DNA of 64,000 bases from positions 224,001 through 288,000 of the forward strand of contig CAVPHD010000004.1 of NCBI GenBank assembly GCA_963704165.1, in the 5' to 3' direction. Source of the DNA: an uncultured delta proteobacterium (GTDB lineage Bacteria > Myxococcota_A > UBA9160 > SZUA-336). Below are positions 44,574-50,916 of the stretch, in pieces. Below the pieces are notes generated by a model that worked only from the letters and a program-made list of their open reading frames with translations, was not told the origin of the DNA and made no database searches. Each line of letters opens with the position of its first letter. Position 1 is the first letter of the stretch. The position numbers and the translations under genes were made by a program.

Positions 44574-45323
44574 ATGGATCGCGATCGGCTCAACGCACTC
44601 CTCGAGAGCTTCGCGCGCGGCGACCTCCAACGCGAAGAGTTCATGGAGACGCTCGCGAAGCTTCCGTTTCAGATGCTGGGCGACGCGCGCGTCGATACGC
44701 ATCGCTCGCTGCGAACCGGTTTTCCCGAAGTCGTTCTCGCCACCGGCAAGACCGCCGATCAGATCGCGCGGATCGTACGCGTGCTTCGCGACGCCGGCGG
44801 CGACGTTCTCGTGACGCGCGCGACGGCCGAGCAGGCGAGAGAGCTGTCCGGCACCGTTCCAGAACTCCAGTACCTGTCGGAGGCCCGCTTGATGGTGCTC
44901 CGACAGACGCCGCTCGTCGTTCGTGGGCGCGGGGTGATCGCGGTGGTCTCGGCCGGGACGTCCGACCTGCCCGTCGCCGAGGAGGCGGCCCTCATCGCAG
45001 AGCACTTCGGGAACAAGGTAGAACGCATCTACGACGCGGGCGTGGCCGGACTGCACCGGTTGCTCGCGTCGCTCGACGTGCTGCGCGGCGCCTCGGTGGT
45101 GATCGCGATCGCGGGCATGGAGGGAGCCCTCGCTTCCGTCGTCGGCGGACTCGTGGCCGCGCCGGTGATCGCAGTGCCGACGAGCATCGGCTATGGTGCG
45201 TCCTTCGGTGGTGTCGCGGCGCTGCTCGCGATGCTCAATTCCTGCGCCGCGAACGTCACGGTGGTGAACATCGACAATGGCTTCGGAGCCGCGTACGTCG
45301 CGTCGCTCATCAACCGCGCCTGA
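44574..45323 (+). CDS. larB: Nickel pincer cofactor biosynthesis protein LarB
   Basis: AGTSDLPVAEEA, AGMEGALAS, PTSIGYG, VVNIDNGFGAA. Confidence 0.93.
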   Translation: MDRDRLNALLESFARGDLQREEFMETLAKLPFQMLGDARVDTHRSLRTGFPEVVLATGKTADQIARIVRVLRDAGGDVLVTRATAEQARELSGTVPELQYLSEARLMVLRQTPLVVRGRGVIAVVSAGTSDLPVAEEAALIAEHFGNKVERIYDAGVAGLHRLLASLDVLRGASVVIAIAGMEGALASVVGGLVAAPVIAVPTSIGYGASFGGVAALLAMLNSCAANVTVVNIDNGFGAAYVASLINRA

Positions 45324-45330
45324 ATCCGGC

Positions 45331-46513
45331 GTGCGCGGCGATCGCGTCCTTCATTTCGACTGCTTCTCTGGCGCGTCTGGCAACATGCTGCTCGGCGCGC
45401 TCCTCGACGTCGGTGCACCGGCAGCTTCGGTGCGAAAAGCGATCGCAGGACTCGGGGTCGGGCCGGTCCGGATGAAGCTCTCTCGCGTCGAGCGCGGCCC
45501 GATCAGCTCCCGCTACGTCGCGTTCTCGGCCCGAGAGCACGACCATCACGGCCGGACCTTTCGCACGGTCCGCGCGATCCTGCGCAAGGCTCGTCTCTCC
45601 GAGCGCGTGCGCGAGCGCAGCCTCGACGTCTTCGAGCGACTCGCGCGTGCCGAGGGCCGAATTCACGGCGTTCCGATCGAGCGCGTGCACTTCCACGAGG
45701 TCGGAGCGATCGACGCGCTCGGCGACATCGTCGGGGTCTGCGCTGCCGTGGAGTCGCTCGACGTCGCGCGCATCAGCTGCTCGCCGCTGCCCCTCGGGCG
45801 TGGCGCCGTGGCGACCGAGCACGGAACGATCCCGCTTCCCGCACCGGCGACGCTCGAGCTCTTGCACGGTGTGCCCACCTTGCCGCTCGACGTCCGCTGG
45901 GAGACCGTCACGCCGACCGGCGCCGCACTGCTGACGTCGCTCAGTCGACGAATTCGGCGCGATGCCCGCGCTGCGCACGCTCGCCCAGGGCTTCGGCGCG
46001 GGCGACGACCGCAAGGGCCCGCTTCCCAATGTGCTGCGAGCGGTGCTCGGAGAACTCGAGCCGGGTCTCGGGCGCGATCACGTCGCCTTGCTCGAGACGA
46101 ATCTCGACGACATGAGCCCGGAACACATGCCGTTCCTGATGGAGCGTCTGCTCGACGACGGCGCCTTGGACGTCTCGCTCGTTCCGCAGCTGATGAAGAA
46201 GGGCCGGCCGGGCCAGCTTCTGCGCGTGCTCGCCAGACCCGCGGATGCCGATCGGCTCGCGCGCCGCGTGCTCTCGGACTCGAGCGCCCTCGGTGTGCGC
46301 GTTCAGATCGTTCCGCGACTCCTGCGTGCGCGCAGCGCGCGCACGGTGGCGACCCCGTACGGCGCGATCCGCGTCAAGCTCGCCGGACTCGAAGGCAAGG
46401 AGATCAGCGTGAAGCCCGAGTACGAGTCGTGTGCGCGAGCGGCGCGGCGTCACGGTGTGCCGATCGCGAGAGTCACGCGAGCGGCGGATCGCGCCGCGCG
46501 GGAGCTCGAATGA
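45331..46513 (+). CDS. larC: Nickel insertion protein LarC, frameshift near 45945
   Basis: DCFSGASG, HFHEVGAIDA, PAPATLEL, TPTGAALL; ETNLDD, MKKGRPG, KPEYE. Confidence 0.9.
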
Positions 46514-47271
46514 AGGCCGACGGAACCGCCTTTCGACTCGGCGACCCGCGCGGTGGCGCCGCGCCCGCCGTGCTCTGCGTCCACGGTCTCACCGGCACGC
46601 CCTACGAAGTTCGGCCCCCGGCCGAAGCGCTGGCCGAGGCCGGGTTCTTCTGCGAAGGACCGGTCCTTCCCGGCCACGGCACCCGCCATCAAGATCTGGC
46701 TTCGACGCCGCGCGACGCCTGGGTCGGAGCCGTCGTTGCCGCACACGACTCCCTCGCCGATCGACACGAACGTGTGTACGTCCTCGGTCTCTCGCTGGGC
46801 GGACTCCTGGCTCTATCGCTCGCGCAGCGACGGGCGGTTTCGGCCGCGGTCGTGCTGGCCGCTCCGATCGACCTCGGGCCGTTGATTCGGAACGCCGTGC
46901 CCTGGCTCTGGCCGCTCGTGCGATCGCTTCCGAAGACGCCCGCGATCTTCGACGACGCCGCACGGGAGCGTCATCCGGGTTACGACCGGATGCCGATGCG
47001 TGCGGTGAACGAGCTGATCCGTCTCGCGCGCGAGGTCGAACGCGATCTGCGCGAGGTGCGCGCCCCGGTTCAGCTCATCTTCAGCCGACGTGACCCGACC
47101 GTTCCCGTTCACAACGCCGAGCGGATCCTATCCGCGCTACCGCCCGGCGATCGAGAACTCCACTGGCTCGAGAATTCCGCACACGTGCTGCCCGTGGATC
47201 GGGAGCGCGACCTGGTCGCCCGCCGAGTGGTCGAGTTCCTGCTTCGGCAGGAGAAAACTGCGAGTGGTTGA
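46510..47271 (+). CDS. Carboxylesterase (alpha/beta hydrolase)
   Basis: HGLTGTP, LPGHGT, GLSLGG nucleophile, DPTVP, SAHV. Confidence 0.9.
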   Translation: MKADGTAFRLGDPRGGAAPAVLCVHGLTGTPYEVRPPAEALAEAGFFCEGPVLPGHGTRHQDLASTPRDAWVGAVVAAHDSLADRHERVYVLGLSLGGLLALSLAQRRAVSAAVVLAAPIDLGPLIRNAVPWLWPLVRSLPKTPAIFDDAARERHPGYDRMPMRAVNELIRLAREVERDLREVRAPVQLIFSRRDPTVPVHNAERILSALPPGDRELHWLENSAHVLPVDRERDLVARRVVEFLLRQEKTASG

Positions 47272-47335
47272 CGGCAGCGTCCGGGCTGGGAATCCTAGGA
47301 CACGAACCACGAACGGTTCCGGGGGCGAAGACGTA

Positions 47336-47548
47336 ATGGCGGAGATTCCCGCGGCCGCAGTGAAGCGGCTGCTGACCAAGCATGGCAGTGAACTGAGAAC
47401 GTCCGGGACGGCAGTCGAGCTGGCCGTGGCCGCAGCTGAAGAGTACATCGCGCGGCTCGCCCAAGAGGCGAGCGCATCGGCTCAGCGCGAGAAGCGCAAG
47501 ACGATCATGGACGACGACATCAAGAAGGCCCGGCAGGTCGTCGGCTAG
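47336..47548 (+). CDS. Histone-fold protein, HMf/archaeal-type (70 aa)
   Basis: MAEIPAAAVKRLL...LRTS...EE...EA...RKTIMDDDIKKA aligns with HMfB (ELPIAPIGRII...ERVS...EE...EA...RKTIKAEDIELA); upstream TTGACG-17-AATCCT. Confidence 0.88.
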   Translation: MAEIPAAAVKRLLTKHGSELRTSGTAVELAVAAAEEYIARLAQEASASAQREKRKTIMDDDIKKARQVVG

Positions 47549-48899
47549 GGGTCGCCTTCGACTCTCGATCGCTCCGCTCCGCGAGCGCCTCGATCACGCG
47601 AATCCAGCGTGGCTCGCCGCCGTCGAGAAAACTGCGAAAGCGGATTCCCGCGAGCACGCTGGCGTAGCCCGGAAGCGTCACGCGCGACATCACGTCGCCT
47701 TCGACCTCGATCGGAGCGAACGGGGAAGGCAGGTCGATCCGGTAGCGCTCGACCGCGCCCGGCAGGATGTCTCGACGCGTGCGCAGACAGACTCCACCGC
47801 GAGCGACGAGCTCGGTGAGTTCATCCCAGTTCTCCGCGGTGGAATCGGTATGCACCACGAGGCGCGCCGGGAAGCGCCGGTATCGTCGATGGGCTGCGTG
47901 GTCGAGGAGGTCGAGCAGCGGCTTCTCGAGTTCTTCCCAACGAAGCGGCTTTGCGACGTAGAGAGCCGCACCCGCATCGCGCGCGGCCGATCGATTCGCG
48001 TTGCTCTCGCGTTCGTCGATGAGCACGATCGGCAACGTCTCCAGCCCCGGAAGCTCGCGAAATCGCATCGCCAGCTCGAAGCCATCCGCCCGACCCAGAC
48101 GCACGTCGATGAACAAGAGCGGGTAGCTCGTCTCGCGGAACGCGGCGAGTCCGCGGGCGGGATCGCGAAGGAGGTCGAGTTCGATCGACCGCTCGGCCAG
48201 GTGGCTCTGCAGGCCGGCGAGCGCCTCGGGTGAGGATGTGACCGCAAGCACCCGGCGTACGCGCTTGGATGAAATCGGGCGTGCATCGCCGGGCGGAGAT
48301 GGTGCGGGCACGAGTGCACTGCGTGCGGCTCGCTCGCGCATCGCCGATCCGATGGAGAGCGCGAGGTCATTCGCGGTTTCGAGACTCGCGAGCGGTCGGT
48401 AGCGCCGCTCGCTCGGGTCCGTGAGCGAGCGCGCGGAGAGCTCGCCGCTGCTCGGCAGCAAGAGCTCGCGAGGCGAACGCACCTCGATCGCCCCCGCCGT
48501 CTCGTCGAGAAAGCGAAGTCGAGCGCCACCCGCGGCCAGCTCCGTCGGCGCGCGCACGCGTTGGAGCCACACGAGTGCCTCGCCGAGGTCCCGAAGTGCG
48601 GATGCCCAGGCACGCCGCAGGACGGCCTCGATGTCCGCGGCCGACTCGCAGCGCGTGACGTCGAGGGCGGGTAGGTCGAAGAAGATCGCCGGGTGGAACA
48701 GCTTCAGCCGGTTGTGGCCCAGGGTGTAGAAACGCACCCGCTCGATCACGATCGGCCGAGGGGAGAGTGTCTCGAGCGGCGTGGGCCCGAGCGGCAGCGA
48801 GCCCTCGGCCGACGTGGCCCCGCGAGCAAGCTCCACGCTGAGCCCGAATGCGCGCAAGCGCTGCACCAGGAACTCCGCGTGACGTTCGGCGAACGACAT
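47520..48899 (-). CDS. Unknown N-terminal domain plus receiver plus PilZ-like domain
   Basis: LLFIDVRLGRADGFEL...YVAKP receiver; RRYRRFP and ARGGVCL PilZ-like motifs. Confidence 0.75.
   Translation of the reverse strand: MSFAERHAEFLVQRLRAFGLSVELARGATSAEGSLPLGPTPLETLSPRPIVIERVRFYTLGHNRLKLFHPAIFFDLPALDVTRCESAADIEAVLRRAWASALRDLGEALVWLQRVRAPTELAAGGARLRFLDETAGAIEVRSPRELLLPSSGELSARSLTDPSERRYRPLASLETANDLALSIGSAMRERAARSALVPAPSPPGDARPISSKRVRRVLAVTSSPEALAGLQSHLAERSIELDLLRDPARGLAAFRETSYPLLFIDVRLGRADGFELAMRFRELPGLETLPIVLIDERESNANRSAARDAGAALYVAKPLRWEELEKPLLDLLDHAAHRRYRRFPARLVVHTDSTAENWDELTELVARGGVCLRTRRDILPGAVERYRIDLPSPFAPIEVEGDVMSRVTLPGYASVLAGIRFRSFLDGGEPRWIRVIEALAERSDRESKATPSRRPAGPS

Positions 48900-48995: not shown

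Positions 48996-50916
<1,921 letters not shown>

Follow-up and report, generated by a model that had tools for sequence, protein, structure and literature searches.

The window analysed here, a 64,000-nucleotide stretch of DNA from an uncultured bacterium of the Myxococcota, encodes a histone, P0001, that likely represents a kind of bacterial histone undescribed in the available parts of the surveys that we examined. It is of archaeal length, and it would act by dimeric bending of DNA rather than by nucleosome-like stacking. Helix length and tetramer residues, which are confounded in the bacterial histone Bd0055, are separated in P0001, so that the protein offers a natural test of what determines wrapping.

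The histone gene and its surroundings

The initial annotation had placed a 70-aa histone gene at 47336-47548 on the plus strand, and its position, strand and length are exact. The HMM search that it proposed gives a match of P0001 to PF00808 (CBFD_NFYB_HMF) at 49.7 bits (cut-off 21.4). The match to PF00125, at 44.4 bits, is also above cut-off, and that to the NCBIfam archaeal-histone model NF043032, at 39.4 bits, lies under its cut-off of 50. The features of the locus are as follows.

45962..46513, + strand: C-terminal part of a larC-like nickel-insertion gene, a marker of the site (PF01969; in 75 of 80 related loci)
46510..47271, + strand: upstream neighbour, an alpha/beta hydrolase (esterase) (PF12146; in 39 of 80 related loci)
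47268..47273, + strand: -35-like hexamer TTGACG (sequence; TTGAC kept upstream in related loci)
47291..47296, + strand: -10-like hexamer AATCCT, 17 nt past the -35 (sequence; xAxxxT kept in relatives)
47321..47325, + strand: G-rich ribosome-binding-site-like stretch (sequence)
47336..47548, + strand: full-length histone-fold gene P0001, 70 aa (PF00808, structure model, dN/dS)
47520..48899, - strand: convergent receiver/PilZ gene, whose end overlaps P0001 by 29 nt (in 53 of 80 related loci)
48996..50615, - strand: groEL, bacterial marker of the site (TIGR02348 above cut-off; in 61 of 80 related loci)

A stand-alone gene with its own promoter-like sequence had been described, and the gene is indeed a single-gene unit whose motif is conserved in relatives, though a consensus promoter scan of the window did not call the -35/-10-like site. 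Of 81 loci, 67 have TTGAC upstream of the histone gene (background windows: 250 of 4000), and in 63 of these 67 it is followed by xAxxxT at a spacer of 16-19 (61 with spacers of 17-18), against 63 of 4000 in the background. The esterase gene upstream of P0001 ends with the TGA of TTGACG as its stop codon; TTGAC has this double use in 32 of the 67 loci, and 31 of the other 35 keep the second hexamer. A purine-rich 4-mer is present in the final 16 nt before the gene in 80 of 81 loci, a count that has no background to set it against. Codon usage is no guide to the expression of P0001, since in this genome the ribosomal genes themselves are not set apart.

The larC gene of the window (45277-46513) is broken by a frame change. 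Because both parts lie in one shared frame in nine relatives, the split is probably an assembly error. Genes for fusA and a copy of tuf on contig C9 look split too, and a second, divergent rpoB lies in pieces at C5:300885-305113, besides the intact rpoB on C9.

Distribution and inheritance

The Myxococcota class surveyed here is one that we take to be GTDB class UBA9160. A PF00808 match was found in 136 of its 225 genomes, with one match in all but one genome. By family, the long histone is present in 28/31, 35/44, 30/33, 16/17, 13/14, 6/6 and 3/3 genomes, and in smaller families as well, and the same search found it in 0 of 68 genomes of one family and 0 of 3 of another. Its absence from these whole families shows that the class can do without it. 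Within a sample of 401 genomes of the phylum, this class alone gave matches at E<1e-30; six genomes outside the class gave weak matches, and the two that were examined are other histone types. In one genome (G074) the long histone is encoded twice, by intact genes that differ from each other and lie on separate contigs (loci L141 and L142).

The gene occupies a fixed site between larC and groEL, where larB is found in 72 of 80 related loci. Where the histone gene has been lost, its neighbours remain: in three loci of the histone-less family the esterase and receiver/PilZ genes adjoin without it, with a gap of about 65 nt in two (two more such loci gave no information). In one histone-less genome the stretch of about 250 nt at the site (L146:475-727) contains a long hairpin together with a ribosome-binding motif and a frame of nine codons. 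In a quick RpoB tree of 28 rows, whose backbone is without firm support, both histone-less families are nested in gene-bearing groups (SH-aLRT 91 each). This distribution fits one gain near the base of the class followed by two losses. A built-in comparison is offered by the large family in which the long histone has gone and the rest remains.

Could the gene nevertheless be an archaeal or eukaryotic contaminant of a metagenome bin, or a recent, transient transfer? The assembly is 84% complete and has frameshift errors, and PMC10627809, in the sections available, warns of long histones in bacterial bins as such cases. The synteny of 80 loci and the presence of the gene in 136 genomes refute this explanation, to which we assign a negligible probability. 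P0001 lies next to groEL on a 645-kb contig of matching GC, and of 21 pairs compared with the window's copy of the gene, 20 have dN/dS of 0.04-0.21 and one is saturated; judged from these sequences, P0001 is under purifying selection, which also speaks against contamination. The taxonomy of the contig, for which the initial annotation had sought confirmation, is thus bacterial.

Predicted fold and homodimer

The AlphaFold2 model of P0001, from a 90-sequence alignment, has a mean pLDDT of 94.6 and helices at residues 6-16, 24-51 and 59-69. The full-length alpha2 and alpha3, which had been claimed as a difference from the Bd0055 type, are therefore present in the model: both are of archaeal length, alpha3 having 11 residues, and the protein aligns without gaps to HPhA from S23 on. 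A Foldseek search with the model returned histone folds only, none at E<=0.001. The TM scores to HPhA are 0.86/0.91 (rmsd 1.1 A), and those to NF-YB and H3 chains 0.83-0.90.

A four-copy complex prediction scored 0.90, with the best control at 0.00; at least 83% of contacts recur between runs, and pLDDT is at least 89. Of 30 solved pairs, 20 reach the mark for such scores, as does 1 of 23 single chains; these counts are rough for P0001, since four copies and a custom alignment differ from the calibration set-up. The confident contacts form a handshake between two copies only, residues outside that list being uncertain, not excluded. The prediction thus supports a handshake homodimer, in line with the dimer that the initial annotation had put forward, and its success may reflect the likeness of P0001 to solved histone dimers.

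DNA contacts and the tetramer face

Residues were placed in the HMf register on an alignment with HPhA, a relative of HMfB, with HMfB numbers taken from the available parts of PMC6136690 and PMC10627809. The HMf number is the P0001 residue minus 1 up to residue 19 and minus 2 from residue 21; the shift is due to loop L1, which has one residue more than in HPhA (L20) and had been overlooked. In this register the residues said to be kept are in place: P5, R11, R21 and E35/E36 correspond to P4, R10, R19 and E33/E34, and R54-K55-T56 and D61 to the clamp R52-K53-T54 and D59. The 31-residue span from S23 to K53 is likewise full, being ungapped against HPhA. At HMf position E42 the family has E in 91%, and HPhA has K.

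Conservation was counted on 321 in-register sequences of 325 distinct family members, four with a different offset being left out. K10, R11, R21, R54, K55, T56, M58, D61 and an acidic residue at position 59 are all conserved at 99-100%; G17, equivalent to the stacking-loop glycine G16 of HMf, is at 97% and K15 at 94%. Column entropy, which is 0-0.03 bits at the DNA-contact residues, rises to 1.6, 2.3 and 2.1 bits at HMf positions 46, 49 and 62. The replacement of these tetramer residues, as claimed, is evident in P0001, which has S48, R51 and K64 where HPhA carries F, H and L. Across the 321 sequences position 46 is S in 70%, A in 12% and L in 7% (Leu or Phe in 27 sequences), position 49 is A in 54%, K in 13% and R in 11% (His in 1), and position 62 is K in 48%, R in 22% and A in 15% (Leu in 0). 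R49 and K62 are therefore the letters of this genome only, and the proposal of a "rewired" tetramer interface is not supported for the family. Since the three positions are lost yet variable, and no conserved replacement interface appears in the sequence, "degenerate" is the better word, though small residues at 46 and 49 could leave room for an alternative tight interface.

According to the accessible sections of PMC6136690, positions 46, 49, 59 and 62 are required for tetramers, and histones without these residues are suggested to simply bend DNA; in those of PMC10627809, Bd0055 wraps DNA only once tetramer residues are introduced. By analogy with HMfB and Bd0055/HBb, we propose, with modest confidence, that a P0001 homodimer grips DNA and bends it as an accessory packer, without HMf-type hypernucleosomes. 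P0001 would pair into the predicted handshake homodimer, which would contact DNA by its alpha1 helices and L1-L2 loops (R11, R21, K55, T56, plus K10 and K15) and bend about 30 bp without sequence preference. With the tetramer residues lost, the dimers would fail to tetramerise, and no HMf-type hypernucleosome would arise.

On the other hand, the dimers, once on DNA, might build tetramers or even longer wrapped fibres, held together by a non-canonical interface of small residues at 46 and 49 and their charged neighbours; P0001 would then be a nucleosome-like bacterial histone. Helices alpha2 and alpha3 are at full length in the model, and the G16 equivalent, needed for stacking, is among the conserved residues. 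Moreover, positions 50-51 are D/E/N and K/R in 96-100% and R/K66 is kept in 98%, and a sister group with H/C/Y at 46 and A at 49 resembles a size swap. The invariant M58 and acidic 59, with small residues at 46 and 49, could in fact make an interface that column entropy does not see, which counts against the accessory dimer. We nevertheless consider stacking unlikely: the three tetramer positions are variable and the DNA contacts nearly invariant, and the HMfB stacking pairs given in the available text of PMC6136690 translate into A32-K63, E36-Q67 and K15-Q50, whose partners vary widely.

Comparison with known histone classes

P0001 and the archaeal nucleosomal histones (HMfA/HMfB, HPhA) are alike in the length of alpha2 and alpha3 and in R10, R19, G16, R52-K53-T54 and D59 (HMf numbering), and HPhA is the best solved prokaryotic sequence match (E 1.9e-9 with the family profile). 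They differ in that the P0001 family is bacterial, has lost L46, H49 and L62, has the extra L1 residue and, after RKT-x, carries M and D in P0001 where HPhA has K and V. With the bacterial dimer histones (HBb/Bd0055, the alpha3 family in the parts of PMC11390915 at hand), P0001 shares its stand-alone form, the RKT motif, the lack of the tetramer histidine and, by analogy, a likely DNA-bending dimer. In contrast to them, its alpha2 lacks the shortening by 4-5 residues seen in the alpha3 class, and its alpha3 has 11 residues against 3-4. The sprocket arginine R19 is invariant in the P0001 family and, in the sections of PMC10627809 available, absent from HBb/Bd0055.

Face-to-face histones (HTkC, HLp) have a truncated alpha3 and, according to the accessible part of PMC11390915, an R/N pair that precedes RxT by six and two residues. 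P0001 has neither; it carries S48 and E52 at the pair positions, where the family has S/A/L and D/E/N. The extra helix, tail, domain or operon partner of the coiled-coil, Methanococcales, RdgC, IHF, phage and ZZ histones is absent as well. Further parallels are Nanosalina HB (PMC6136690) and the "undefined" histones of PMC11390915, which, as far as the available parts of these papers tell, also have a full fold with DNA residues kept and dimer-dimer residues lost; those sources propose that such histones bend DNA or cap fibres. The Nanosalina HB-like examples are archaeal, whereas in the P0001 family the trait has become fixed throughout a class of bacteria, and members of the family may be among the "undefined" histones.

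P0001 therefore falls outside both major families, having nucleosomal length and contacts without the tetramer residues, and none of the shortening that marks the alpha3 histones. Set against the published classes, as the initial annotation had advised, it shows none of the alpha3-class marks and is nucleosomal except in its tetramer residues and its score under the NF043032 cut-off. Of that reading as a whole, a bacterial, full-length histone with a promoter-like motif, a homodimer, lost tetramer residues and a place outside the alpha3 classes are all supported; "rewired" is not.

In the portions of the published surveys available, nucleosomal-length histones are archaea-only. Since a long histone has been inherited vertically across a bacterial class, the division into archaea-only nucleosomal histones and histones with a shortened alpha3 needs a third entry. 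In the available part of PMC10627809 a short alpha2 is diagnostic of bacterial singlets, a trait measured after removal of proteins >65 aa. Its Table S1, as accessible, lists without comment a family member, UBA6930 (70 aa), a sister-group member from a Lentisphaerae bin (76 aa) and several singlets of HMf type that are scattered over bacterial bins. A description of the family was not found in the available passages of PMC11317129, PMC11789641 and PMC10516927, or of the main texts of the preprints 10.1101/2024.12.06.627149, 10.1101/2025.06.26.661778 and 10.1101/2023.06.01.543357, nor in searches of the openly accessible literature.

Other histones and the apparent loss of HU

The genome encodes two further histones and two proteins of the HU/IHF family.

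C12:155285-155491, - strand: face-to-face-type histone P0284, second histone of the genome (motif scan; L105:5283-5492)
C3:162018-162539, - strand: ZZ-type zinc-finger histone, third histone of the genome
C11:12990-13259 and C2:27503-27772: the only two HU/IHF-family genes of the genome, IHF beta and alpha, above cut-off

The Pfam search does not detect P0284, whose best solved match is the face-to-face histone HTkC. It has a lysine-rich N-terminal tail and one residue after the clamp Asp, against nine in P0001; the span equivalent to R21-R54 is 29 residues, against 33 in P0001 and HPhA. The R/N pair is present in all 28 parsed copies of this second histone (30 loci). The gene occurs in 208 of 225 class genomes and in 116 of 118 good ones, so that the long histone is the more dispensable of the two histones surveyed across the class. 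Its distribution suggests that the face-to-face-type histone would be the main packer, with the long histone as a dispensable supplement.

Might P0001 instead join one of the cell's other histones, face-to-face-type or ZZ, in a heterodimer or a mixed oligomer, and so tune or cap their fibres? Both histones are present in 127 of 136 long-histone genomes, and of the other nine, six are <85% complete. Their co-occurrence is expected anyway, however, because the face-to-face-type (alpha3) gene is nearly universal, and it is still there in 64 of the 68 genomes that make up the family without the long histone. The genes for P0001 and P0284 are on different contigs, their alpha2 lengths are four residues apart, and the two proteins give no BLAST alignment. 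We therefore think such a partnership improbable, less likely than any alternative but contamination.

All 21 HU/IHF-family genes that were classified are IHF, and HU was not found among them: the two of this genome and, in ten more class genomes, 19 of 19 full-length matches, assigned to IHF alpha or beta. Matches per genome number two in 111, one in 5 and three in 5 of 121 class genomes (the third matches in the last five being left unclassified), and five genomes of the phylum outside the class have three to five each. From these sequences HU seems to be missing from the whole class, in which histones are thus candidates for the chief organisers of the chromosome. This apparent absence extends to genomes that do not have the long histone as well as to those that do, and for this reason the face-to-face histone is the stronger candidate to have taken the place of HU. 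A different class of the phylum has a full-length histone, extended at its C-terminus, beside an IHF-like gene (L137; G360:C103:1942-2510), and the protein fits the description of IHF histones.

A packer or a regulator?

The net charge of P0001 is +2, as is the family median, which is low for a bulk DNA packer. The protein is 70-75 aa long in all 80 loci read, without any extension. The eukaryotic NF-YB and H3 are alike in fold, with an equal-length H3 match over residues 9-70, and differ in having tails and only ~30-35% identity; no NF-YC or H4 partner was found. The regulatory role of NF-YB, whose histone fold is among the top fold matches, counts against the accessory dimer. It is worth considering that P0001 is a low-abundance regulator or protein-interaction module, like the NF-YB/TAF histone folds, and not a bulk chromatin protein. 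NF-YB is among the best matches in sequence as well as fold and also lacks the tetramer histidine, and M58 and acidic 59 stand where HPhA has a basic position. Yet the gene has no travelling partner, the neighbours staying behind after its loss; the canonical DNA-backbone contacts are all invariant; and the NF-YB-like QREK stretch is this genome's version, variable in the family. A regulatory role appears distinctly unlikely to us, and we retain the DNA-bending accessory dimer as the preferred reading.

Wider relatives and origin

A family-profile search gave 947 clusters at 90% identity, and intermediate relatives came to light when all 1.84 billion representatives were searched. Those that carry names belong to Acidobacteriota/Vicinamibacterales (a 40-member cluster) and Verrucomicrobiota, with one record labelled "archaeon". 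The Acidobacteriota-type copies adjoin argininosuccinate synthase, and they and the Verrucomicrobiota relatives are likewise without His49. Of 76 sequences of the Acidobacteriota/Verrucomicrobiota sister group (P0449-P0556), four of which are from the core family, 53 have H, C or Y at position 46 and 63 have A at position 49; the pattern is possibly a swap at the tetramer face.

The family and its Acidobacteriota- and Verrucomicrobiota-type relatives form one clade, with support of 96/92 in one tree and 64/92 in another (70 columns), and eukaryotic rows fall outside it in both. The likeliest source of the family would be among archaeal HMf-like histones. It is tempting to go further and propose that the class swapped HU for histones, combining a face-to-face tetramer with an archaeal-length histone whose new small-residue interface would let it wrap DNA in nucleosome-like form, and that with the Acidobacteriota and Verrucomicrobiota sisters this is a third major family of prokaryotic histones, next to the nucleosomal and alpha3 ones; we hold this broader view to be doubtful.

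A 209-aa protein of a 175-kb viral contig (L106:2674-3303) combines a full-length histone fold with a long acidic stretch at its N-terminus; it shares the PNA-VKR and RKTIMD motifs, at 42% identity.
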